A DNA stretch of 11,327 bases from an uncultured Deinococcales bacterium (GTDB lineage Bacteria; Deinococcota; Deinococci; Deinococcales; JAAFIG01), in NCBI GenBank assembly GCA_964247135.1, contig CAXTTL010000159.1, positions 1 through 11,327 on the forward strand. Direction: 5' to 3'. The position numbers were made by a program, and so were the translations under genes. Position 1 is the first letter of the stretch, and every line of letters begins with the position of its first letter. The notes under the pieces were generated by a model that saw nothing but the letters and a program-made list of their open reading frames with translations, searched no databases and was not told where the DNA came from. This document shows, piece after piece, positions 2 to 11,327 of the stretch.

Positions 2-2101
2 AGCGAACAACAACTGATTCAAAGTCTGGCGCAACTGGTGCAAAGTGCCTCGAGCGCCTACACCAAATTCCAGCAAACCCACAAAACCACCACCGCCAAA
101 ACCCAAGCCGACACGATAGCCGAATTCACCAAAATCCTGACCAGTTCCGACACCGCCTTCCAAGCCGCACTCGAGCAACTCGCCACCAGCCTCGAGAAAG
201 CCGCCAGCGACTACGGCACGGCATTGGTCGCGCACGCCAACGGACCAGATTTTGCCGCCGCCTTGACGGCTGCCGAAGCCAAAGCCGCCGCCGATGTCCA
301 ACCGCGTTGGAAGGGTTTACTCAAAATTCTTTTGATCATCGTGGTGGTCGTCGTGATCGCCCTGGTCATTGGTCCAGCCGTGATCGGTGCGGTTGGCGCG
401 TTCGCCGCCACGATGGGTGCGGGAGCCGCCGCCGGCGCCATCGGCGCGATTGTTGGCGGCGCAATCGTCGGCGCGTTATCGGGCGCGGTCATTCAAATGG
501 GCAGCAACGCCATCGACGGTAAAGCCATCTTTGAGGGCGTCGGACAAGCCATGCTGGTCGGCGCGATCAGCGGCGCGATTGGCGGCGGACTCGGTTACGC
601 CTTCTCGAGCGGCGCCAATGCCGCCGCCACATCCTCGAGAACCATGCTTTCAGCCATCGGCAGCAAAGCCAACAGTTTTGCGGGCAAAATGATTCTCGAT
701 CAGGTCAACGGTGTGGTCAGCAGTCAATTCTCGAGTTTGCTGACCACCGGAAAATTCCAAGACTTTGGGGACATGCTGAGAGACCCCAGCATGTGGATTG
801 GCGTGGGCGTCAGCGCCGCCAGCCACGCTGGAGGACCTCGAGTTGGAATAAGCGGCGAACCCACTCGACCCGCCAACAAGCTCGAGCTGATTCAAGAACG
901 GGCATCGGCTGCCGGTGAACGGTTCGGGCAAGACCTCGGTGTGCGCACCATGCAAGGTCTGGGAAGTCGCCCCAACATTGGCGTCAAAACCAACACGAGC
1001 CTCGAGCCAGGACAGCAACGCATCAACACCAACGAAGGTGCGGCAAAAGTCGAAGTCGGGCAGAACTCGCACCCAGAGGATGTTCGGGCACACCAAGATG
1101 TGGCGACACAGCATGTTCTCGAAAATGGTCCAATCGCCAAATTAAAGCAACGCCTCGGTATCGGTGAGGCAAACGAAGCCCCACCTGGCAGCAAAGCCCG
1201 TCAACTTGAAACCGAAGCCTTAAAACACGAAGCGATGTCGGATTGGCGTTTTGCCGAATCGGAACGTCAAGCCAAACTGGGCAACAAAGCCGAATCAGAC
1301 CGTTTACGCCAAGAAGCCCATGATTTACGCGAAGCCAGTCACGATTACCTCGAGCAATCTCGAGACATCAATGCCCGCAACCAACCAGGTGACGGTCAAA
1401 TCGATGGTGGTAAAAAAATCTATGACAACCACGACGATGTTAAAGATTTGCTGGGTAAACCATTTGACAAGACAAAAGTGCCAGATGGCTATACCACGTT
1501 TGAAATAGAAGGTGGTCGCAAGATCGTTGCTAAAGTAAGACCAGATGGAAGAATTGATATCAAACAAGCTGTTTTGCTTGTCAATGAAAAAGGTAATGTT
1601 TCTGTGAATGCACAAAGTCGCGTCAGTTATGACTACATTAGTATTTATGAAAATAGCCCAAATGCACGCCCTGGTATTAGCTTTGGTAAAGATGGCTATA
1701 CCGTTCACCATATGATTACCGATAAAATTTCGACAGGACATCCGTTAACTGTTAAAGCAATGGAATTGATTGGGTTTAATGTTGATACACCAGCCAATTA
1801 TGCAGCAATGCCAATGAAAGATCAATTTTTTAAATTGGACGGAACTGAAGTAGGACATTGGTCTTCGCATCCAGAATTTGATAAGATAGTAATTACTAAA
1901 TTAGATCGTATTCAAACCGCTCTCGAATTAAAATATGGTGAAACACCAGACTGGTCTGCTCACCCTCAGAGAGCACAGATTGAAGCTGAACTTAGACAAC
2001 GTATCCAAAATTTACAGGATGAAATTTTCGAGGATATTAGAACTGGTAATGTTCCGCAAACTAATGAAGGAACAACACATGGTGCTGGTAGAATTAACTA
2101 A
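2..2101 (+). CDS. Polymorphic toxin, 5'-truncated by the window, with a hydrophobic Gly/Ala-rich segment and a C-terminal AHH-like (HNH/EndoVII superfamily) nuclease domain
   Basis: The frame is open from position 2 (SEQQLIQSLAQLVQSA...), so the real start lies upstream. Hydrophobic stretch LLKILLIIVVVVVIALVIGPAVIGAVG...GAIVGGAIVGALSG at ~316-500. The C-terminus has VHHMI (1703-1717), GFNVDTPANYAAMP and GHWSSHPEFDKIV (1853 onward), matching the AHH pattern xHH..GF.i....N...lP..H...H..Y/F...V. Immunity-like genes follow immediately. Confidence 0.85.
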   Translation, partial: SEQQLIQSLAQLVQSASSAYTKFQQTHKTTTAKTQADTIAEFTKILTSSDTAFQAALEQLATSLEKAASDYGTALVAHANGPDFAAALTAAEAKAAADVQPRWKGLLKILLIIVVVVVIALVIGPAVIGAVGAFAATMGAGAAAGAIGAIVGGAIVGALSGAVIQMGSNAIDGKAIFEGVGQAMLVGAISGAIGGGLGYAFSSGANAAATSSRTMLSAIGSKANSFAGKMILDQVNGVVSSQFSSLLTTGKFQDFGDMLRDPSMWIGVGVSAASHAGGPRVGISGEPTRPANKLELIQERASAAGERFGQDLGVRTMQGLGSRPNIGVKTNTSLEPGQQRINTNEGAAKVEVGQNSHPEDVRAHQDVATQHVLENGPIAKLKQRLGIGEANEAPPGSKARQLETEALKHEAMSDWRFAESERQAKLGNKAESDRLRQEAHDLREASHDYLEQSRDINARNQPGDGQIDGGKKIYDNHDDVKDLLGKPFDKTKVPDGYTTFEIEGGRKIVAKVRPDGRIDIKQAVLLVNEKGNVSVNAQSRVSYDYISIYENSPNARPGISFGKDGYTVHHMITDKISTGHPLTVKAMELIGFNVDTPANYAAMPMKDQFFKLDGTEVGHWSSHPEFDKIVITKLDRIQTALELKYGETPDWSAHPQRAQIEAELRQRIQNLQDEIFEDIRTGNVPQTNEGTTHGAGRIN

Positions 2102-2109
2102 GGGAAAAG

Positions 2110-2817
2110 ATGAGTGATAAAGTATACCAATTATTACAGAATATAGGTCGCTTGGGCAGTATGCCAAGCGGTGATGCTTTTGATTTAAGAGATTTTGAAT
2201 TCCCTACAGAATCTGAACTATGGCATACACATGCTAATAGACCACTTAAATTACCCGAAACAGTTTTCTTTTATATGAATTCAAATCTTAAATTTATTAA
2301 AGAACTTGATATGCTATACGCAGATGCTGGAAATTACGTTGTTTCACAACGTTTAATAGATGTCTTACTGTCGGTAAAGAATTTTAATTATCGAAAATAT
2401 AAAATTGCCATTTTAGAAGAAGGGGCAATTCGATTTCAGAAAAATCCAGATGGCTATAAATCCCCGAAACCGTACTCAAATCCAGAAGAGTTTAAGAAAA
2501 AAAGCCTTCGAGATGACATGTACATTTTTCAACCACTCGAGATTTTATCCGATGTTTTTGACTGGGAAAATTCTGTATATAAACAATATGATTATGATAA
2601 AGAAATAAATGTACCTTCTTCAGTTCGAGAATTTGTTTTAAAAGAACCGACAGGTGGATTTCCACCCGTATTTAGATTAAAAGAAGACCCTGTAACATTG
2701 TTTATTTCTGCTGAGGCTCGAGAAGCCTTAAAAAAGGCAGATATAAAAGGAACTTCATATCTATCATTAAAAGGTTATGCCATTGGTAGACAAAAAGAGA
2801 TTGATGTTCCCATTTAA
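2110..2817 (+). CDS. Immunity protein, Imm11/DUF1629-like; probable cognate antitoxin (copy 1)
   Basis: ATG 8 nt after the toxin stop, preceded by purine-rich AGGGAAAAG. Motifs VVSQRLIDVL and PPVFRLKEDPVTLFISAEAREALKKADIKG resemble the Imm11 pattern FRL....lfvS...k.al....i.G. Imm11 is commonly paired with AHH toxins. Family assigned by motif recognition, not by HMM search. Confidence 0.75.
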   Translation: MSDKVYQLLQNIGRLGSMPSGDAFDLRDFEFPTESELWHTHANRPLKLPETVFFYMNSNLKFIKELDMLYADAGNYVVSQRLIDVLLSVKNFNYRKYKIAILEEGAIRFQKNPDGYKSPKPYSNPEEFKKKSLRDDMYIFQPLEILSDVFDWENSVYKQYDYDKEINVPSSVREFVLKEPTGGFPPVFRLKEDPVTLFISAEAREALKKADIKGTSYLSLKGYAIGRQKEIDVPI

Positions 2818-2943
2818 ATATTAATCTTTTTAAATCTGAACTACTAAGATTTTTTTGCTTTTAAGACACTTGAGTATTATGGAATTGCCAATATTAACTC
2901 GAGAAACCTATCCTCAAAACTTAGGTTAACGAAAGAATACTAC

Positions 2944-3615
2944 GTGGCATATGAATTAAACAATGATATTAGAAGATTATCTTTTATGGAACGTGGCGAC
3001 GCCTATGATTTAAAAAGTTTTTCGTTTTCAAAATCAGCAGAACTACTTCGCACATATGAACCTAGGTTGCTTGACTTACCCGAGGTATCATTTTTTTATG
3101 TATATTCTAAGAAAAGTTTTGTTGAAAGACTAGATTCACTATATACTCATGGAGTTCAATGTGTGTTTTCGCAAAAAGCTATAGATGTATTATTATCTGT
3201 AAAAGACTTTGAACATCGAAAATACGCAACCGCAATTCTGGCTGAAGATTTACCAGATTCTAAAAATCCGTATGATAATCCAGATTTTTATAAGACTAAA
3301 AGTTTGAGAGATGACTTATTTATTTTTCAAACACTCGAGTTTCTAGATATTTTTGACTGGGAAAAATCAAAGTATCGCCAGACAGATCTCAATAAAGAAG
3401 TTGGATCACCTGGTAGGGTTAGTGAATATGTATTTCGAGAACCTTCTAGTGGATTCCCGCCGCTTTTCCGTCTTCCTTATCAACCTGCCCATTTATTTAT
3501 TTCACATGATGCACGTCAAGCATTAAGGTTAAACAATATTAAGGGTTTTTCATTTTCAAAACTTAATGATTTATGGAATTCTGAAGTTGATACACCAATT
3601 TCGAATAAATTATAG
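2944..3615 (+). CDS. Immunity protein, Imm11/DUF1629-like, divergent paralog (copy 2)
   Basis: Shares GDAYDL, LLSVKDF..RKY..AIL, KSLRDD..IFQ.LE, FDWE.S.Y and GFPP.FRL with copies 1 and 3. The GTG start is uncertain. Confidence 0.75.
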   Translation: MAYELNNDIRRLSFMERGDAYDLKSFSFSKSAELLRTYEPRLLDLPEVSFFYVYSKKSFVERLDSLYTHGVQCVFSQKAIDVLLSVKDFEHRKYATAILAEDLPDSKNPYDNPDFYKTKSLRDDLFIFQTLEFLDIFDWEKSKYRQTDLNKEVGSPGRVSEYVFREPSSGFPPLFRLPYQPAHLFISHDARQALRLNNIKGFSFSKLNDLWNSEVDTPISNKL

Positions 3616-3672
3616 TTGCTCATAATAATATATTTAACTGTAATTAATCGATCAAAAAACACTAAGTAAAAA

Positions 3673-4380
3673 ATGAATGAAATTGCGTATCAATTATTGC
3701 AAAGCTTAAGTCGCTTGGGCAGTATGCCAAGCGGCGACGCTTTTGATTTAAGAGCTTTTGATTTTCCTAGAGCATCAGATTTATGGCAAACACACTCGGA
3801 TAGACTGCTTGAATTACCGGAAACTACTTTCTTTTACATGTATTCAAATCTTAAATACATCAAAGAACTTGATGTCTTATACCCACATTCAGGAAAGCCT
3901 ATTTTTTCTCAGCGTTTAATTGATACACTTTTGTCAGTGAAGAATTTTAATTACCGAAAATACAAAATTGCTATTTTAGAAGAAGGTGCAGTTAAATTTC
4001 AAAAAAATTCAGATGGTTATAAATCTCCTGAGCCATACGCAAATCCAGAAGAGTTTAAGAAAAAAAGTCTTCGGGACGATATGTACATTTTTCAATCGCT
4101 CGAGATTCTATCTGATGTTTTTGATTGGGAAAACTCTATTTATCGACAAAGCGAACTCAGCAAAGAAGTTGGTTCGCCTGGTCATGTACAGGAATTTATT
4201 TTAAAAGAACCCAAGAGAGGTTTCCCACCAATATTTAGATTAAAAGAAAGTCCAGTAACACTATTTATTTCTGCTGAAGCTCGAGAAGCACTAAAAAAAG
4301 CTGGTATTAAAGGAGCTTCATATCTATCATTGAAAGGCTACGCTATTGGTAGGCAAGATGAAGTTGATGTCCCCATTTAA
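3673..4380 (+). CDS. Immunity protein, Imm11/DUF1629-like (copy 3), close paralog of copy 1
   Basis: Same length (235 aa) as copy 1 and aligns without gaps. Hand count gives about 56 differences (~76% identity). Confidence 0.78.
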   Translation: MNEIAYQLLQSLSRLGSMPSGDAFDLRAFDFPRASDLWQTHSDRLLELPETTFFYMYSNLKYIKELDVLYPHSGKPIFSQRLIDTLLSVKNFNYRKYKIAILEEGAVKFQKNSDGYKSPEPYANPEEFKKKSLRDDMYIFQSLEILSDVFDWENSIYRQSELSKEVGSPGHVQEFILKEPKRGFPPIFRLKESPVTLFISAEAREALKKAGIKGASYLSLKGYAIGRQDEVDVPI

Positions 4381-4530
4381 ATATTAATCTCTTTAAATCT
4401 GAGCTAATAAGACTTTTTTGCTTTAAGACACTCGAGTGCTATGGAGCTATTTGTATTAACTCGAGAAGCTCTGATAAAAGTTGTCCAAATGCAGCGTTTA
4501 TTATCTGAAGTTTTATTTAGTAGGTAATAC

Positions 4531-5160
4531 ATGACTATTGACCAACAGGAAAACGATATTGAAGTTATAGAAAACGCGTGGAAAACGCAAAATTTTGATA
4601 AAGATATAGTTCAAAATCTCATAAAAAAATTTTCTAAATCGAAAAATGAAAAATTGCTTGAGATTCTCAGGGAGTCATTGAGTTCAGAAAATAATTTTTG
4701 ACGCAGGATAGCGGTTGACAAACTAATTTATTACAAAGATAAGATAAATTATTAAAATATTAAACTAATTAAAAAAATTATTGAAGCTGATGAAGATTCT
4801 AACTTCTGGCTTTTGTTAATAAAGATAGTGAATATTTTTTTTTATAAAAGACTTCATGTCGAGAAAGATAAGTATGTGTTGTCAGCACTCGTTGTTTCGA
4901 TTCTAACCATCAACGAAATACCACCTTATACGGAATTAACGAGAACACTCCGTTATTCCGCTTCGCTCCACAACTCCGTTAACCTCGTTGATTCCGTACT
5001 TTTGCCACTCCCGTTGGTCGGGGGAACAGTCGATAAAGCATGACTGTTCCCCGCAATTTGGTATTACTTGTCTTTGCCATTTTCTGATCAGATTTCCTCG
5101 GGTGAAATTCAAATCACTGACAAAGTGATACAGGATTTTATTCGTAAAAACTCGAGTTAA
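4531..5160 (+). pseudogene. Decayed HEAT-repeat-like gene, probably an orphan immunity protein
   Basis: ATG at 4531 after TAGGT. One frame reads MTIDQQENDIEVIENAWK...LLEILRESLSSENNF*RRIAVDKLIYYKDKINY*NIKLIKKIIEADEDSN...KRLHVEKDKYVLSALVVSILTINEIPP[insert]YLSLPFSDQISSGEIQITDKVIQDFIRKNSS*. In-frame stops at 4699-4701 and 4753-4755. Repeated L..(D/E).(D/N)...R..A helical units are HEAT-like. Confidence 0.6.
4929..5063. mobile_element. 135-bp MITE-like / Deinococcus SRE-like small repeat with a TTA target-site duplication
   Basis: TTA at 4926-4928 and 5064-5066. Imperfect terminal inverted repeats TACGGAATT / AATTTGGTA (7 of 9 match). Internal 15-bp stem (4929-4943 with 4984-4998, one G-T pair) and a perfect 11-bp stem GGGGAACAGTC/GACTGTTCCCC (5021-5031 with 5042-5052). 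More GC-rich than its flanks. Removing it with one TTA rejoins CCT-TAC-TTG in frame. Confidence 0.75.
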
Positions 5161-5247
5161 AGATGCAAATATTCGTCGCCTGACGTTCCAAAACCGCTCA
5201 CAAGCAACAACTTGTTGCAAATTTGGCATCCACAATTTCGGCTCGAG

Positions 5248-5736
5248 TTAGTCGAATGGCAATACCAAATCCGTGTCCACATTTCCTGGCAATGGATGCT
5301 CGAGAATGCGGGCGAGTGCCAGCAGTTGCCCTTTGTGGTGAAATTCGTGGGTGATCGGGTGCAGCAACAACCAACGTTGCGTGACTTTTAACGGTCCAGA
5401 ACGGTGCGCAAACTCAAATGGTTCGTCTGGGGTCCTAAATTTCTCGAGCGCCTCTTCCACGATTTTGTCTACAAACTTAAACCGTTCGCGTATGGCGCTT
5501 GCATCCAAGATTTGTTCGGCTGGCACGATCAGGTCTTCGCGTTTGTAACCCAGCGCAACGCCAGCCCAAGCCAGGTAGCAAAAGGCAACATGGGCGTGAA
5601 TGTTGCGAATGCTGCCGTAGGCAAAATCGGGTCGCTCGAGAATATAAATCTCGTTTGGTAGGCTGTCAGTAAACTCGAGCAGGACTTCGCGGGTGCGGCG
5701 GACGAGGTCGTACATCACCTTCAAATCATCGTTCAT
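5248..5736 (-). CDS. DinB/YfiT (DinB-like putative metalloenzyme) family protein; not DNA polymerase IV
   Basis: Motifs GSIRNIHAHVA...W and LLHPITHEFHHKGQL give the three-His site of the DinB four-helix family. ATG at 5736, with an alternative GTG at 5742. Lies 9 nt downstream of bcp. Confidence 0.85.
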   Translation of the reverse strand: MNDDLKVMYDLVRRTREVLLEFTDSLPNEIYILERPDFAYGSIRNIHAHVAFCYLAWAGVALGYKREDLIVPAEQILDASAIRERFKFVDKIVEEALEKFRTPDEPFEFAHRSGPLKVTQRWLLLHPITHEFHHKGQLLALARILEHPLPGNVDTDLVLPFD

Positions 5737-5745
5737 TCGCACAGC

Positions 5746-6210
5746 TTACGCCATGACAGCTTGCTGTTTCTTGAGGATTTGCAGAACTTCGGTGGCGTGA
5801 CTGAGCGGATTCACGAATTTCCAGTGGTGCGCGAGCTTGCCTTGCGGATCAATTAAAAAAGTTTGACGGTCTGCATTGCCGAGTAACGCCATAAAACCAT
5901 TGATGACCCCATACGCTTTGGCAATGCTTTTATCGGTGTCGGGCAACAACAAAAAGGTCAGGTGGCATTTTTCACGGAATTTTGTTTGTGAGGCGCTCGA
6001 GCCTGTGCTGACGCCGATCACTTGGGCGCCCAGTTTGACAAATTCTGGCAACGATTGCTCGAAACGTTGCGCCTCAATGCTGCAACCGAGCGAACTGTCT
6101 TTGGGGTAAAAGTACAAAATCACCCATTGCCCACGGAATTGCTCGAGGCTGATGATTTCACCCGTATCGCTGGTGGCAGAAAAGTTTGGGACGGCTTGGG
6201 AAATGTTCAC
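5746..6210 (-). CDS. bcp: Peroxiredoxin, BCP/PrxQ subfamily
   Basis: APNFSA...ISLEQFRGQWVILYFYPKDSSLGCSIEA carries the PxxxS/TxxC peroxidatic motif. Also GAQVIGVS, LLPDTDKSIAKAYGV and RQTFLIDPQGK. Confidence 0.92.
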   Translation of the reverse strand: MNISQAVPNFSATSDTGEIISLEQFRGQWVILYFYPKDSSLGCSIEAQRFEQSLPEFVKLGAQVIGVSTGSSASQTKFREKCHLTFLLLPDTDKSIAKAYGVINGFMALLGNADRQTFLIDPQGKLAHHWKFVNPLSHATEVLQILKKQQAVMA

Positions 6211-6301
6211 GCTTGCAGGTTACTGGTTTTAATGGTGATAAACCGTAGGCGAAACTCGAGATGCAATGTATTGCGCGGCACTCGAGTACAATAGCCAAAT
6301 C
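6211..6301. promoter_or_regulatory. Compact divergent promoter region with candidate leaderless -10 boxes for bcp and glcD
   Basis: Minus strand: TAACCT (6222-6217) sits 6 nt before the bcp GTG. Plus strand: TACAAT (6287-6292) sits 9 nt before the glcD ATG at 6302. Neither start has an obvious Shine-Dalgarno sequence. Confidence 0.45.
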
Positions 6302-7753
6302 ATGCTCGAGCCTCTCGCCATTCTGACCGATTTACGCCGTGTTCTGGGTGAAGCTCGAGTCATGACCAAACCCGCGCAATTGGCGACGTATGAATCCGAT
6401 GCGCTGACCAGTTTTAAAGCCAGGGCGTTGGCGGTGGTCATGCCAGAAACCGAACTCGAGGTGGTTGAGGTGGTCAAAATCTGTCACAGGCACCGTGTTC
6501 CGTTCGTGGCTCGAGGTTCGGGCACAAGTTTGTCGGGCGGCAGTCTGCCAGTGGCGGACGGCGTGGTGATCGCCTTGAATAAGCTCAACAAAATCCTCAA
6601 ACTCGACCCACTCGAGCGTGTGGCAATCGTCCAACCTGGCGTGACGAACCTGGCGGTGTCGACGGCTGCCGCACCGTTTGGCTTGTACTACGCGCCCGAC
6701 CCCTCGAGCCAACAGATTTGCACGATTGGCGGCAACGTGGCGTTCAATTCTGGCGGGGCGCACTGCCTGAAGTACGGCATGACCAGCAACCACGTGCTCG
6801 GTTTAAAAGTGCTCTTGCCCGACGGCGAGGTGCTCGAGTTAGGAGGCTCGAGTTTGGAAGGTGTGGGCGCCGATTTACACGGCTTGTTCGTGGGGTCGGA
6901 GGGTTTGTTCGGCATCGCGCTCGAGGTGACATTGCGCCTGCTGCCCAAACCCCAGCGGTATCGCACGGTGCTGGCGGCGTACCGTTCGCTCGAGGCGGCG
7001 GGCGATGCGGTTGCCAGCGTGGTGTCCAGCGGCTTGCTGCCTGGCGCAATGGAAATCATGGACGCTTTGGCAATCGAGGCGGCGGAGGCAGCCGTTCACG
7101 CGGGTTATCCCAAAGATGCGGCGGCGTTGCTGATCGTCGAACTCGAGGGTGAGGACCGCGCCATCGAAGCCGAATTTATAGAACTCGAGCAGGTGATTCG
7201 GGCGTCTGGGGCTTATGAAGTGCGCATTGCGCAATCCGAACTCGAGCGTCTGACGATTTGGAAGGGACGCAAGAGCGCGTTTAGTGCCGTCGGACGTTTA
7301 AGCCCCGATTACATTGTCCAAGATGGCGTCGTGCCGCGCGGTAAACTTGGGCTGGCGCTCAAAGAAATTGGGCGCCTCTCGAGCGTGGCGGGATTGCGGG
7401 TGGCGAACGTTTTTCATGCGGGCGACGGCAATTTGCACCCACTGATTTTGTTCGATGGGCGCGAACCTGGGGCGCTACGGAGGGCAGAACAGCTTGCAGG
7501 TGAAATCCTCGAGTTGTGCGTTCGTTTGGGCGGCAGCATCACCGGCGAACACGGCGTTGGCGTCGAAAAACGCGAACACATGCCGATCATGTTTTCACTT
7601 GGTGATCTCGAGGTCATGAAACGCTTGCGGCTTTCAATCGATTCGCTCGAGTTGAGCAACCCTGGAAAAATGTTCCCCAGCGGCGAAGCCCCCGCGCTCG
7701 TCTCTCACGCGCCGCATCCGCTCGAGCGGGCTGGCATCATCACCAGGGAATGA
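6302..7753 (+). CDS. glcD: Glycolate oxidase/dehydrogenase FAD-linked subunit GlcD
   Basis: Motifs [68 protein letters not shown] and [17 protein letters not shown] 6302 chosen over the upstream ATG at 6266. Confidence 0.93.
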
Positions 7754-8292
7754 TGGATGATATTCGTCCCGCTTACGAGGAACACGGCGTGACCGGTTTC
7801 TATGAACAGTTCGGCTCGAGTTACCGCAACCCGCACGAAACCATTTTGCAAAGTCTTCTGAAGCGCGTAATCCTCGAGTGGAAACTTGACCTCTCGAGCG
7901 TGCTCGATTTGGCGTGCGGCAGCGGCGAGGCGACGTTGGTCTTGCAAGAACTTGGCGCGAAGGTTGCTGGAATTGACCCGTACACGTTTGAAGCTTATTT
8001 GGAACGCACGGGTTTACACGCCGAACCATTTTCATTCGATGATATTGCCAATGGCACACTCGAGGGGCGAAGTTACAGTTTGATCGTGTGCAGTTTTGCG
8101 CTGCATTTGATGGAAGTCTCGAAACTGCCAATGTTGTTGTTTCAACTTTCACAAATCACCGACACCCTGTTGATTTTAACGCCGCACAAGCGTCCTCAAA
8201 TCAAACCAGAATGGGGCTGGCATCTCGAGGCTGAAATACTCGAGGATCGGGTTCGGGCGCGGTCGTATCGGACTTTAGGAGAATCCGCATGA
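7750..8292 (+). CDS. Class I SAM-dependent methyltransferase of unknown substrate
   Basis: Motif [11 protein letters not shown], then [17 protein letters not shown] and [14 protein letters not shown] overlaps with glcD (7750-7753) and with glcE (8289-8292). Confidence 0.85.
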
Positions 8293-9323
8293 CGATTCCC
8301 GAAATCCAAGATTTCATCAAATCCCAACCTCGAGTTCGGGTGCGCGGCGGCGGCACAAAACCCACGCTTTCCAATGCCGCAAATCTTGAGTTATCACAAC
8401 TTTCGGGGATGCTCGAGTACGACCCGAGCGAGTACACCTTCACGGCGCTGGCGGGAACCCGAGTCTCCGAAATCGCCCAGATTCTTGCCGAGCACGGGCA
8501 GCATTTGCCGTTCGACCCGCCGTTTCAGACGGCTGGTGCAACTTTGGGCGGCACGGTGGCGGCTGGGCTTTCGGGTTCTGGGCGGCAACGTTTTGGCGGC
8601 GTGCGCGATTTTGTGCTGGCGGTGCAATTTATAGATGGTCTGGGAGCGCTTGTAAGGGGAGGTGGCAAGGTTGTGAAGAACGCTGCGGGGTTTGACCTGC
8701 CCAAAATGCACTGCGGCGCTCTGGGAGCGTTTGGCGTGCTGACGGAATTAACCTTTAAAGTTTTTCCAGCGCCCAAAGCCTGGGCAAGCTTGCAACTCGA
8801 GTGTCAAAACTTCAAAACTGCGCTTGAAGTCATGCAAAAATTGGCTGGCTCGAGTTTTGATCTTGAATGCTTGGACATTTTTGACTCAAGCGTCTTGATC
8901 CGTATCGGTGGCGTTCCAGAAGCTTTGGAGGCGCGACTCGAGAACCTTCAAAAGTTCGTTGGCATTGAAGGACAAGTGATTCGAGATGACACTGAAATCT
9001 GGCGCGACGCCCGAGAATTCTTGTGGGTCAAAGAAGGCACAGCACTGGTGAAAATCCCTGTCACCGCCAGCAAAATCCCAAATCTCGAGGCAAAAATTGC
9101 CGCTCACGGGCGAACGCGCTACACCTCGAGCGGCAATCTGGCTTGGCTCGAATGGACGGAATCACTCGAGAACCTGGACGCGACCTTGCTCGAGCTTGGG
9201 CTGTCGGGTTTGGTGTTGCGCGGCAACACGGCTCGAGCTTTGCTGGGAAAACAAGTTGGTGGTGTGCTGCTCGAGCGGGTGCTGAACACTTTTGACCCAG
9301 AAAGGAAATTCAATGCAACATAA
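8289..9323 (+). CDS. glcE: Glycolate oxidase FAD-binding subunit GlcE
   Basis: Motifs [50 protein letters not shown] and [15 protein letters not shown]. Confidence 0.93.
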
Positions 9324-10557
9324 CATTCCACTCGAGAAATACGGCGCTCAAGGTTCAGCGATGGCTGAGGCGGTCGAAGCCTGCGTGCATTGCGGTTTTT
9401 GCCTGCCAACCTGCCCAACCTACCGCGTTCTGGGCGAGGAAATGGACTCGCCGCGCGGGCGCATTGTGCTGATGAAAGAGGTGCTCGAGGGAAACCTTTC
9501 GATGGCTGAGGCGAATGTTCACATTGATCGTTGTTTGGGTTGTCTGGCGTGCGTCACCGCCTGTCCAAGCGGGGTGCAATACGGCGAGTTGCTTGCGCCG
9601 TTTCGGGCTTTAAGTCAACCAAACTCGAACTTGCAAAAGATCACGAAAATCTTGATCTCGAGCACCTTGCCACACCCGCAGCGGTTTCGGTTGGCAGCCA
9701 GTTTGGGGCGTTTTGGAAAACCGTTTAAACCGTTTTTACCCAAACCCATGCAAGCCATGCTCGAGCTTTTACCAGAGGCGCTGCCGAGTGCTTACAACTT
9801 ACCAGAGTTTTTTCCTGCCATCGGCAAAAAACGCGCTCGAGTCGCGCTGCTTTCGGGTTGCGCCCAACAGGTGCTCGCGCCTGAGATCAACCGCGCGACG
9901 CTCGAGGTGCTGTCACGGAATGGGGTGGAGGTCGTCATTCCCAAATCCCAAGGATGTTGCGGCGCCATTCTGCTGCACACGGGGCAACAGTCTGAGGCTC
10001 GAGCGCTCGCCAGAAAAAACCTTGATGTTTTCCCGAACGATGTCGATGCGATTATTACCAACGCGGCGGGTTGCGGTTCGGGTATTCACGAGTATGGCTT
10101 GTTGTTCGCGGGAGAACCCGAAGAAGAAAAAGCTCGAGCACTTGCGGTGCAGGTCAAAGATGTCAGCGTTTTCCTTGCCGAACTCGGTTTGGTCACGCCC
10201 TTAAAACTCGAGAATCCCTTAAAACTCGCGTATCACGACGCCTGCCATTTGGCGCACGCCCAAAGTGTACGAATTCAACCCAGAAGTTTACTCTCGAGCG
10301 TCGAAAACTTAACGCTGCTCGAGTTAGCCGACCCAGAAATTTGTTGTGGCTCGGCGGGAACGTACAACATCGAACAACCCGAAATCGCCCGTGAACTGGG
10401 AACACGCAAAGCCAAAGCCGTGATTGAATCGGGTGCGAATGCCATCTCGAGCGGCAACATTGGATGCTTGACGCAAATCAAAACACACCTCGAGCGACTG
10501 GGGCATGATTTGCCTGTGCTTCACACCATCGAGATTTTACGCGCCGCGATGCGCTAG
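9313..10557 (+). CDS. glcF: Glycolate oxidase iron-sulfur subunit GlcF
   Basis: Two 4Fe-4S motifs ([12 protein letters not shown] and [12 protein letters not shown]), DSPRGRI, and CCG domains ([25 protein letters not shown]). ATG 9313 follows the SD-like AAAGGA (9301-9306). Confidence 0.94.
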
Positions 10558-11327
10558 AGGGTGTTTGAATTCGTCCTAAACGAGATTTCTCGAGAATCAC
10601 CATTTCACACGACACACCAAAATCAAAGGGGTAGGCTACATTTCCGATGAAAACCTACCCAAACCAGCTTACTCAACGCCAATGGAATATCCTAATTTTC
10701 AATCTCCCAGATCGAAATCGGACACCGAGAACCCAATGGGGTTGGCGCATCATCCTCAACGCCATCTTTTACGTGCTCAGAACAGCTTGCCAATGGCGTT
10801 ACCTTCCAAAGCACTTCCCACCTTGGGGTACGGTTTATCACTACTTTCGCACTTGGGTTCACGATGGTCTTTGGGAGCGTTTGAATACTATTCTCAGAGA
10901 ATTGGTACGTCAAAAGGTGAACAAGGATGCGCAACCCACAGCTTGCTGCATTGATACGCAAAGCTCGAAAACCACTGAAGTTGGTGGAGTTCGTGGGTAT
11001 GATGGGTACAAGAAAATCAATGGTCGAAAACGATTCTTACTGGTGGACACGCTTGGATTGTTACTCACAGTGAAAGTCATACCAGCGAATTGGTCTGAGG
11101 TGGATTGTGCTTTGGTTGGTTTGGAAGGCATGAACTCGAAATTTGGGAAGCTCAAGGTGATGTGGGCTGATGGTGGTTTCAATGATTTCAAATTTCGTTC
11201 TTGAGTCAAAGGCATATTGGGTTGCGAATTAAGGATTACCAAGAGCTTGTCCAAGCCTGGGCAAGCTGATTTTAAGGTTGCACCAAGGCGTTGGGTGGTG
11301 GAGGCGATCCCGCCCGTCAGGTGCATT
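10557..11327 (+). mobile_element. IS5-family insertion sequence (IS1031-like subgroup): left end plus defective transposase; right end not seen
   Basis: GAGGGTGTTTGAA at 10557, directly after CTA, resembles the terminal inverted repeats of IS1031-like elements. The transposase starts 90 bp inside. Confidence 0.8.
10647..11303 (+). pseudogene. IS5-family DDE transposase with a premature stop
   Basis: N-terminal YPNQLTQRQW...ILNAIFYVLRTACQWRYLPKHFPPWGTVYHYFRTW (DUF4096-type), then IDTQS, GYDGYKKINGRKRFLLVDTLGLLL and WADGGF. TGA at 11202-11204 is followed in frame by VKGILGCELRITK...FKVAPRRWVVE. Confidence 0.88.

Follow-up and report, generated by a model that had tools for sequence, protein, structure and literature searches.

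CTCGAG as a highly iterated palindrome throughout the DNA of a Deinococcales family

A contig of 11,327 bases (CAXTTL010000159.1, contig C159) from the assembly of an uncultured Deinococcales bacterium (GCA_964247135.1, hereafter G000) is the whole stretch of DNA that we call the window, and the palindromic hexamer CTCGAG that recurs along it is the subject of this study. We conclude that CTCGAG is a highly iterated palindrome (HIP) of the kind known from cyanobacteria, and that it belongs to a whole family of the order Deinococcales, designated f1, which comprises 19 species-level genomes (G000 included) in five genera. As a descriptive account, we hold this to be nearly certain. An ongoing fixation bias on the whole hexamer holds CTCGAG at about 25 times its expectation in all DNA of the family. 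The G000 assembly consists of 386 contigs with 5,091,702 bases and 52.65% G+C, the largest contig being 116 kb, and is 84% complete and 1.8% contaminated.

The window carries exactly 78 CTCGAG sites, the first starting at position 49 and the last occupying 10589-10594, as compared with a mean of 1.96 (sd 1.45) and a maximum of 7 in 200 dinucleotide-preserving shuffles, none of which reached 78. The sites start at the following positions:

Window 49-4460: 49, 170, 191, 604, 634, 730, 837, 881, 1001, 1349, 1359, 2536, 2717, 2898, 3334, 4099, 4280, 4431, 4460
Window 5151-7142: 5151, 5242, 5299, 5443, 5635, 5674, 5996, 6142, 6255, 6281, 6305, 6354, 6455, 6510, 6611, 6703, 6833, 6847, 6920, 6989, 7142
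Window 7184-9084: 7184, 7241, 7378, 7508, 7607, 7646, 7721, 7815, 7873, 7893, 8059, 8224, 8239, 8329, 8412, 8796, 8849, 8937, 9084
Window 9125-10589: 9125, 9165, 9189, 9232, 9270, 9331, 9484, 9657, 9760, 9836, 9901, 9998, 10133, 10207, 10293, 10318, 10446, 10489, 10589

Based on the list of open reading frames (ORFs), with the start of glcD set at 6302, 44 sites fall in frame 0 (CTC-GAG, read as Leu-Glu), 11 in frame 1 (xCT-CGA-Gxx), and 15 in frame 2 (xxC-TCG-AGx), plus eight between ORFs (2898, 4431, 4460, 5151, 5242, 6255, 6281 and 10589). The original prediction, made from the letters of the window, had put the total at about 78 by hand count, with about 58 sites in 5151-10557, all three codon phases in use, and intergenic copies at 2898, 4431, 4460, 6255 and 6281. 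The exact recounts of 78 (shuffle expectation about 2) and 58 agree with these figures, as do the phases and all five intergenic positions.

The enrichment is not local to this contig, and a count over the whole assembly gives 33,925 CTCGAG sites (6.66 per kb), or 24.7 times the base-composition expectation. CTCGAG is the commonest hexamer of G000, the hexamers ranked next are its own overlapping shifts, and the next palindrome has an observed/expected ratio (O/E) of 3.7. All 297 contigs of at least 5 kb carry 2.6-10.5 sites per kb, and the O/E stays at 23-26 in every G+C bin from 0.35 to 0.60, with 14 in the 0.30 bin (three 2-kb windows). The longest stretch free of the word in 5.09 Mb spans 2,644 bases. 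Spacing is near-geometric with a mean of 148 bases and a coefficient of variation (CV) of 0.96, modified by a three-base ripple, a shortage of distances below about 15 bases, and about ten gaps that exceed the Poisson maximum of roughly 1.6 kb. Recent site-poor DNA is possibly under-sampled in these counts, since composition-based binning may have dropped atypical contigs.

The flanks of the sites carry little information: G before and C after the word reach 39% each, and no base exceeds that value. The extended palindrome GCTCGAGC is not preferred over independent flanks, and conserved sequence beyond the core word, a trait of repetitive extragenic palindromic (REP) sequences and miniature inverted-repeat transposable elements (MITEs), was not seen at any flanking position of the sites examined. 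With flanks that are nearly uninformative, the repeat unit is therefore the bare hexamer and not a longer repeat. In a self-comparison of G000, no segment of at least 300 bases occurs in three or more copies. The words one substitution away from CTCGAG (one-off words) have a mean O/E of about 0.9, with 1.17 for CTTGAG/CTCAAG and 1.74 for TTCGAG/CTCGAA, and none of them is depleted except those containing CTAG.

Preference for Leu-Glu codons had been considered insufficient to explain the sites in the window, and this holds for the genome. As a heuristic gene proxy, not a gene call, we used 3,818 non-overlapping ORFs of at least 150 codons (4.22 Mb). These long ORFs hold 27,595 sites, with 16,912, 4,271 and 6,412 in frames 0, 1 and 2, so that 10,683 lie outside the Leu-Glu frame and the word is not confined to it. 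Shuffling synonymous codons within each ORF (10 replicates) left an O/E of 5.7, 14.6 and 11.6 in frames 0, 1 and 2, and shuffling the codon order (10 replicates) left 14.8, 25 and 21. A codon-pair-preserving null (first-order codon Markov), which is uninformative for frame 0 as it preserves the CTC-GAG pair by construction, gave 1.81 and 1.87 in frames 1 and 2. Strictly non-coding DNA, defined by having no ORF of at least 75 codons in any frame (101.5 kb, 42% G+C), contains 642 sites (6.3 per kb, O/E 38.8). The excess thus persists under the synonymous, codon-order and, for frames 1 and 2, codon-pair nulls, and in DNA without genes.

Codon choice follows the word, in dependence on the neighboring codon, and not the reverse. 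Among 21,956 Leu-Glu pairs, 77% are spelled CTCGAG, as against a share of 15% for CTC among Leu codons without a following Glu and of 32.5% for GAG among Glu codons without a preceding Leu. CGA makes up 53% of Arg codons where the neighbors permit the word versus 12% elsewhere, and TCG 54% versus 19%. Altogether, CTCGAG accounts for 44% of the CTC codons and likewise for 44% of the GAG codons. The word has also altered amino-acid sequences. Leu-Glu is the most over-represented dipeptide of the long ORFs (O/E 2.36), and Ser-Ser, which is encodable in frame 2, ranks third (O/E 1.62). The GlcD protein encoded in the window has 14 Leu-Glu pairs and its gene 18 sites, and a close relative has 14 pairs and 12 sites, while the means for 79 other GlcD homologues are 5.9 pairs (sd 1.6, maximum 9.5) and 1.1 sites. 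From the excess in GlcD and the dipeptide counts, we therefore conclude that the word has reshaped proteins.

The profile of sites along 3,532 long ORFs is flat at about 6.5 per kb, but within 50 bases downstream of stop codons it rises to 10.8 per kb. ARAGORN predicts 67 tRNA and transfer-messenger RNA (tmRNA) genes in G000 (5.5 kb), some of which look doubtful; together they contain 11 CTCGAG sites versus about 1.5 expected by composition, and one tRNA-Leu carries two. Examples of these tRNA/tmRNA genes in G000 lie at:

C14:11589-11740
C157:3282-3938
C46:5146-5220

All 19 genomes of family f1 have CTCGAG densities of 4.3-6.8 per kb (rounded genome sizes were used for genomes other than G000), and with the excess present in all 18 other genomes it is neither local nor an assembly artefact. 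In 22 genomes of four other families of the order, densities range from 0.03 to 2.9 per kb. Within a sample of 201 genomes that we surveyed from the phylum, none of the 198 further genomes outside f1 exceeds 3.6 per kb, and the highest values (3.1-3.6 per kb) occur in a few genera. Other genera of the order show a milder excess of 2-3.6 per kb, and one large genus (83 genomes) lies at 0.01-0.3 per kb, below the composition expectation. The trait is graded across the phylum and extreme in f1. The original prediction had pointed to CTCGAG being frequent in some other Deinococcota as well, and the milder excess of up to 3.6 per kb outside f1 fits this.

CTCGAG is also the word best retained between two species. 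Alignment of 395 kb of the congener G005 to G000 yielded 289.5 kb at 86% identity, in which 1,552 of 2,014 G000 sites (77%) are intact in G005, and 85% of 1,823 G005 sites are intact in G000. By conservation, CTCGAG ranks first among the 1,600 hexamer classes with at least 40 occurrences (mean 44%, sd 10). The silent third base of CTC is unchanged in 995 of 1,115 codons inside the word versus 768 of 1,344 outside it, and the ratio of silent divergence inside to outside is 0.25 for CTC, 0.28 for GAG, 0.41 for NCT, 0.64 for CGA and 0.53 for TCG. Outside long ORFs, the divergence ratio is 0.53. Retention at silent positions is independent of the protein. The one-off words that differ by a transition are unusually unstable, with 21.5% of CTTGAG/CTCAAG and 30% of CCCGAG/CTCGGG conserved against the mean of 44%. 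Among the non-conserved partners of G000 sites, transition variants at the three half-site positions are near-equal in number (53, 73 and 50). G005 DNA that does not align to G000 has about 5.3 sites per kb versus 6.3 in aligned DNA.

For site turnover, five congeners were projected onto 83 kb of G000, the six genomes being about equidistant at 85-87% identity. The ancestor of each terminal branch was taken as the consensus of the other five genomes with at least four agreeing at each column, a rule that drops fast-evolving windows and thereby under-counts gains relative to losses. Across the 428 windows with data in six genomes and at least one site, the site is present in six, five, four, three, two and one genomes in 174, 95, 38, 36, 36 and 49 cases. 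Motif positions underwent 341 changes on the six terminal branches versus 834.5 expected when base, type of change and codon position are matched elsewhere (ratio 0.41), and retention is 0.893 versus 0.736 for all other hexamers. Relative to the control rate, gains are raised 1.9-, 6.7- and 27-fold when the ancestral word is one, two and three changes away (12, 9 and 10 events), and 216, 2 and 0 of 4,095 hexamers, respectively, match these values. The process that creates or keeps CTCGAG is active in present lineages. An inference of this kind, that the lineage has a process creating or maintaining the word, had been drawn earlier from the window, and both the retention rank and the two- and three-step gains bear it out.

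Gains that would compensate for losses nearby were not seen: 0, 1 and 4 of 95 losses have a gain within 30, 60 and 120 bases, versus 0.2, 1.0 and 3.8 expected. Given this result and a clustering of new sites near old ones, described below, the pressure works on individual sites, not on their spacing. Spacing homeostasis was rejected as an explanation, there being no compensatory turnover and the spacing being near-random. Doubleton single-nucleotide polymorphisms in the 83 kb are shared by all 15 pairs of the six genomes at 4.8-11% each, an evenness that could come from a star radiation, free recombination, or silent-site saturation among the six species.

Base composition within the window is uneven, with 55-60% G+C on the left, an island of 33% at 1500-5000, and 50-61% on the right, and the word is found in each part. 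The features are:

2..2101, plus strand: C-terminal end of a polymorphic-toxin ORF, with an AHH nuclease domain at its end (PF14412, E 1.5e-7)
49..1364, plus strand: 11 CTCGAG sites within the 55-60% G+C part of the polymorphic-toxin ORF
In the 33% G+C island, plus strand: three paralogous Imm11 immunity genes of 235, 223 and 235 residues, all three with a PF07791 match
2536..4465, plus strand: 8 CTCGAG sites within the 33% G+C island with the Imm11 genes
5151..10594, no strand given: 59 CTCGAG sites, about one per 92 bases, spanning the dinB-like, peroxiredoxin, glcD, SAM-methyltransferase, glcE and glcF genes plus their spacers
Right part of the window before glcD, minus strand: a DinB-family (dinB-like) gene and a peroxiredoxin gene
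Right part of the window, in this order: glcD, a small S-adenosylmethionine (SAM) methyltransferase gene, glcE and glcF
6255..6310, plus strand: three CTCGAG sites in 56 bases at the glcD start, with 6255 and 6281 upstream of the likely start codon at 6302

The 3.5-kb island has 8 sites, as compared with about 0.3 expected from its composition. Matching positions across the Imm11 paralogues carry sites (2536/3334/4099 and 2717/4280), as do the spacers after them (2898; 4431 and 4460). Over a 5.3-kb orthologous stretch of the part at 5151..10594, the five other genomes of the genus have 34-53 sites, many in the same columns. The site at 6305 supplies the Leu-Glu codons for residues 2-3 of GlcD if translation starts at 6302; a longer glcD ORF starts at 6266, and homologues align only from its residue 8-31. 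The closest named relative of this GlcD is 93% identical and comes from a Deinococcales bacterium.

Several further observations in the window and the genome stand beside these. Positions 2-4380, a toxin end followed by three Imm11 genes, look like an array of spare immunity cassettes. The gene between glcD and glcE of the glycolate oxidase operon (7750-8292) encodes a class I SAM-methyltransferase of 180 residues, overlaps each neighbor by 4 bases and is kept in congeners; its product is probably a small-molecule enzyme. The dispersed repeat of 137 bases at 4928-5064 resembles a young MITE or REP-type element: G000 has another 26 copies, mostly 96-100% identical, each of the five congeners has many, and CTCGAG is absent from all 27 copies in G000. 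At the contig end (10595-11327) lies a fragment of an IS4/5-family transposase gene (DUF4096 plus DDE domain), whose 733 bases have 0 CTCGAG sites versus about 5 at the genome density, and which has no other copy in the assembly. Many further palindromes are extremely scarce in G000. GAGCTC, which is CTCGAG read backwards, has 0 copies, and there are 1 of GGGCCC, 3 of CGGCCG, 4 of AGGCCT, 5 of CGTACG, 7 of GGATCC, and 47 of CGATCG (O/E 0.03). GGCC has 380 copies (O/E 0.016), CTAG has an O/E of 0.07, and with just 5 copies of GAGCCC/GGGCTC the pattern GRGCYC is avoided as a whole. About half of the 64 palindromic hexamers have an O/E below 0.2, and GAGCTC has fewer than 30 copies in 15 of the 18 other family genomes.

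Because the symmetric word is favored only when complete (one-off mean O/E of about 0.9), we infer that a dimeric, site-specific protein reads it. The canonical Vsr family (PF03852) has 0 matches in G000, an assembly that is 84% complete. DUF559, a Vsr-fold family, is represented there by four small genes (contigs C142, C61, C252 and C290), one with stop codons, and has 1-11 matches in 16 of the 18 other f1 genomes, with no match found in two. It is present as well in five of six sampled genomes of a CTCGAG-poor family. Not being restricted to CTCGAG-rich genomes, DUF559 was set aside as the specific reader and is a lead only. A search for the XhoI-family nuclease (PF04555) had 0 matches in the 19 f1 genomes, and the same search matched four of 72 other genomes of the order, where one of the four genes is interrupted by stop codons. 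In three of these genomes, a gene for an N6_N4 methyltransferase of about 340-354 residues, confirmed by Pfam in two of them, comes after the nuclease gene. Nothing in G000 is closely related to this partner enzyme, for which the best match reaches 25% identity. A resident XhoI-type system was therefore rejected, with neither the nuclease in f1 nor a close partner methyltransferase in G000.

A Pfam search of G000 for methyltransferases returned two C5, four or five N6_N4, one D12, one type I, two type IIG-like and one giant fusion enzyme, and a motif scan of all ORFs together with Pfam added one gamma-class enzyme of 514 residues. Seven of them were traced through the family, namely the two C5, three of N6_N4 type (SPPY or SPPF motifs), the D12 and the gamma-class enzyme; the tracing left out C189 and the type I and type IIG-like enzymes. 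None of the seven traced genes occurs in more than eight of the 18 other f1 genomes: close homologues (at least 50% identity) are found in two to six, and any homologue of the gamma-class enzyme, encoded on contig C51, in eight. Non-orthologous methyltransferases of the same specificity in different f1 genomes are possible. One methyltransferase gene of G000 (C4:28577-29977, 466 residues) has counterparts in G005 (C76:182942-184300) and G012 (C72:42092-43402) that carry two in-frame stops each and look like decaying genes. The gamma-class enzyme forms part of a predicted pair:

G000:C51:8405-10599 (L177:866-3060): predicted type II restriction-modification pair, nuclease then gamma-class methyltransferase

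The nuclease of this pair has 217 residues, matches NCBIfam NF052465 (type II restriction endonuclease) with 328 bits, and overlaps the start of the methyltransferase gene. The methyltransferase belongs to no Pfam DNA-methyltransferase family (it has a sub-threshold rRNA-methylase match only), its roughly 8,000 homologues bear generic names only, and its sole similarity to solved structures is a weak one to M.BseCI (E 0.019). As the two cytosines of the half-site are no more mutable than the thymine, the substitution pattern hints weakly that neither 5-methylcytosine nor repair of the very-short-patch type is involved; it may be compatible with methylation at N6 of adenine or N4 of cytosine, or with none at all. 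Among the 80 viral loci listed, no contig with three sites in about 100 bases has the f1 signature; almost all of these contigs have 64-72% G+C (one has 57%), and most of the densest are also GAGCTC-rich.

The phenomenon is a matter of direct counts, and from these we infer how it might be driven. The reading that we rank first, with a probability of roughly one in three, is that CTCGAG would tag the lineage's own DNA for preferential uptake or recombination. Such a tag would raise the chance that a piece of DNA is taken up or recombined, possibly in a methylation-dependent manner, so that CTCGAG-bearing alleles could spread by molecular drive in a recombining gene pool, and multi-base gains would represent allele replacement. 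We place it slightly ahead of biased repair because the pressure is additive per site, because accessory and low-G+C DNA is reached almost equally, because multi-base gains fit allele replacement, and because the same role is now emerging for HIP1. The sharing of doubletons among all 15 pairs was counted in its favor, although it may stem from recombination or from a star radiation. Thermus and Deinococcus are naturally transformable. Several results weigh against uptake or recombination as the driver. ComEC (PF03772), a component of the DNA uptake machinery that would suit a tag, is encoded by G000 and by 17 of the other 18 f1 genomes, but also by all 22 other genomes of the order that were searched; found in 40 of 41 genomes regardless of CTCGAG content, it does not discriminate. 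Known uptake sequences are 9-12 bases long, non-palindromic and present about once per kb, and a six-base palindrome discriminates poorly as a tag. Single-lineage losses (95) exceed single-lineage gains (49) by about 2 to 1. Single-step gains from conserved one-off words number 12 versus 11.9 expected, so the gain from one-mismatch precursors that a comparison of orthologs might have shown is not clearly raised, even if it exceeds the control of all other hexamers 1.9-fold. The distance to existing sites is shorter for new sites than for conserved ones (median 53 versus 75 bases, p 5e-4). The flanks of multi-step gains within 30 bases are not extra diverged, at 0.082 versus 0.084 in controls consisting of any window with at least two changes; with flank divergence equal to controls, the flanks give no sign of imported recombination tracts at multi-step gains, and this idea was set aside. 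Finally, the counts of one-off words imply a 27-fold asymmetry between gain and loss, and the measured rates give about 3-5-fold.

A close competitor, ranked only slightly lower, is a bias in DNA repair or in gene conversion that depends on a methyltransferase or nicking enzyme specific for CTCGAG; where a complete site pairs with a near-site, the mismatch would be resolved to the complete word, similar to Elhai's model for HIP1 or to a much stronger form of very-short-patch repair. Six-base palindromes are typical targets of type II methyltransferases and nucleases, and the same enrichment in each G+C class and contig, extending to the 11 sites in 5.5 kb of predicted tRNA and tmRNA genes, is what a process acting on all resident DNA should produce. 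The transition one-offs CTTGAG/CTCAAG (21.5%) and CCCGAG/CTCGGG (30%) are among the least stable words, and G000 has the four Vsr-fold DUF559 genes. Yet PF03852 found no canonical Vsr in that 84% complete assembly, DUF559 extends to the CTCGAG-poor family (five of six genomes) and was not found in two of the 18 other f1 genomes, and the depletion of a one-off word expected from very-short-patch repair is not seen (CTTGAG 1.17, TTCGAG 1.74). The half-site counts of 53, 73 and 50 transition variants reveal no cytosine deamination hot spot, none of the seven methyltransferases tested has close homologues in more than eight of the 18 other genomes, the best match to the XhoI partner is the one at 25% identity, and single-step gains are not clearly raised. 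If each site instead served a cellular function outside DNA exchange and repair, such as binding a nucleoid-organizing protein, and were kept by purifying selection, the strong retention within and between genes would follow, and the conservation of HIP1 has been used to argue for selection and a role in chromosome structure in the accessible part of PMC5861425. We consider this unlikely in view of the near-random spacing (CV 0.96, near-geometric, about ten gaps beyond the Poisson maximum of about 1.6 kb) and the missing compensatory turnover with new sites near old, which speaks against a requirement for evenly spread sites; a site every 150 bases, together with rewritten proteins, would also far exceed the needs of known organizing signals.

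Two further accounts were considered. The word could be a relic, built in the family ancestor by a process since lost and now decaying neutrally, as the lack of a family-wide reader gene, the 95 losses versus 49 gains in single lineages, and the single-step gains that are not clearly raised might suggest. Neutral decay predicts the background rate, but motif positions change at 0.41 of expectation and silent ones at 0.25-0.64, two- and three-step gains run at 6.7 and 27 times control in present lineages, and all 19 genomes of the five genera still have 4.3-6.8 sites per kb. The raised gains and the slowed change therefore exclude a neutral relic in our assessment, or leave it very improbable at best. 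We give practically no credence to the view that the excess follows from preferred codons or dipeptides, or that it reflects a family of dispersed repeats or an artefact of assembly or binning. It is true that 61% of long-ORF sites lie in the Leu-Glu frame, and that in high-G+C relatives CTCGAG outnumbers the reversed word 2-3-fold, possibly through codon preference. Yet the enrichment persists under every null, in each of the three frames as well as in non-coding DNA, the neighboring codon determines codon choice and not the reverse, flanks carry almost no information, and the density is the same in 19 genomes that each represent a separate species. The clustering of new sites near old is predicted by none of the models considered, and in combination with a gain excess that rises with step number and an asymmetry of 27-fold versus about 3-5-fold it fits no explanation well. 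It is conceivable, if a long shot, that some process writes complete CTCGAG words in single multi-base events near existing sites and not via point mutations, for instance by templated repair in short patches, or by conversion over very short tracts that start from existing sites. This is suggested because the gain excess rises from 1.9 to 6.7 and 27 times with one, two and three changes, because new sites lie closer to old ones, and because point-substitution rates explain only about 3-5-fold of the 27-fold asymmetry. If true, CTCGAG would be a self-propagating genomic element without mobile DNA.

To our knowledge, three decades of work on highly iterated palindromes have dealt with a single phylum and have not settled the mechanism. 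With CTCGAG in f1 there is now a second case, independent of the first and denser, and its phylum is known for natural transformation and efficient DNA repair. The gradient among relatives, from depleted (0.01 per kb) through mild (2-3.6 per kb) to extreme (6.7 per kb), opens a comparison of which genes track the word, and cultivable relatives with the mild form make the question open to experiment. With 77% of Leu-Glu pairs dictated and one dipeptide 2.4 times too common, the case also illustrates the reach of a pressure at the DNA level. In practice, an XhoI digest would cut f1 DNA into pieces of about 150 bases, and ignoring the word would mislead composition-based binning, codon models and selection tests on these genomes. 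A literature search, with subscription journals and supplements outside its scope, found no published report of CTCGAG hyper-abundance.

Among known systems, the uptake signal sequences (USS) of Pasteurellaceae and the DNA uptake sequences (DUS) of Neisseriaceae are hyper-abundant words that occur in all frames, alter coding sequences, and are thought to be spread by preferential uptake or recombination. CTCGAG resembles them in being a hyper-abundant short word in all frames of the lineage's own DNA. USS and DUS are often paired at terminators, and unlike these longer, non-palindromic words at about one per kb, CTCGAG is a six-base palindrome without informative flanks at 6.7 per kb. In Escherichia coli, CCWGG is over-represented via Dcm methylation and Vsr very-short-patch repair, and the likeness lies in a methyltransferase target that is enriched by repair favoring the complete site. 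The Dcm/Vsr effect is small and leaves the T-containing one-off word depleted, whereas CTCGAG has a 25-fold excess, no depleted one-off word apart from those containing CTAG, and no canonical Vsr gene was found in G000. Restriction targets are usually avoided, not amplified. XhoI/PaeR7I-type systems have the same six-base target as the word in f1, but the f1 genomes differ from their hosts in that no XhoI-family nuclease was found in any of the 19. A predicted CTCGAG restriction-modification system in Mycolicibacterium smegmatis, described in the available text of Randall et al. 2020 (PMC7526240), shares this target too, and action on it can be predicted for methyltransferases of the N6_N4 family. 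A 2026 preprint includes CTCGAG among the methylated motifs of hot-spring communities, and its available portion does not name this lineage.

The closest parallel is HIP1 (GCGATCGC) with its alternates, which include the six-base palindromes GGCGCC and rCCGGy in cyanobacteria (Elhai 2015, PMC4390886, as far as accessible). Like CTCGAG, these are short G+C-rich palindromes that stand out as genomic words, independent of frame and present within and between genes, and HIP1 is likewise shared by a whole clade and conserved beyond neutral expectation. According to the accessible parts of the respective sources, Elhai models HIP1 by methylation-directed mismatch repair (PMC4390886); Xu, Lawrence and Durand 2018 hold that it is kept by selection with a role in chromosome structure, and describe a periodic distribution at 10-90 kb (PMC5861425); methylated HIP1 raises the transformation of a cyanobacterium more than 100-fold (10.1101/2024.09.10.611283); and HIP1 has been proposed as an uptake recognition sequence (PMC13756078). 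CTCGAG is another word in another phylum, and not the octamer GCGATCGC. Its density is higher (6,660 per Mb versus 300-2,700 per Mb) and its O/E lower (25 versus 55-228), judged by the values in Table 2 of PMC4390886. Unlike in HIP1, deviations are not concentrated at the outer positions and no extension beyond the core was seen. A co-distributed orphan methyltransferase, typical of the HIP class, was not found for CTCGAG among the seven genes traced from the 84% complete assembly. Another difference from HIP1 is the imprint of CTCGAG on the proteome, where one dipeptide is in 2.4-fold excess. CTCGAG shares four features of the HIP class, namely an outstanding palindrome, frame independence, clade-wide spread, and conservation.

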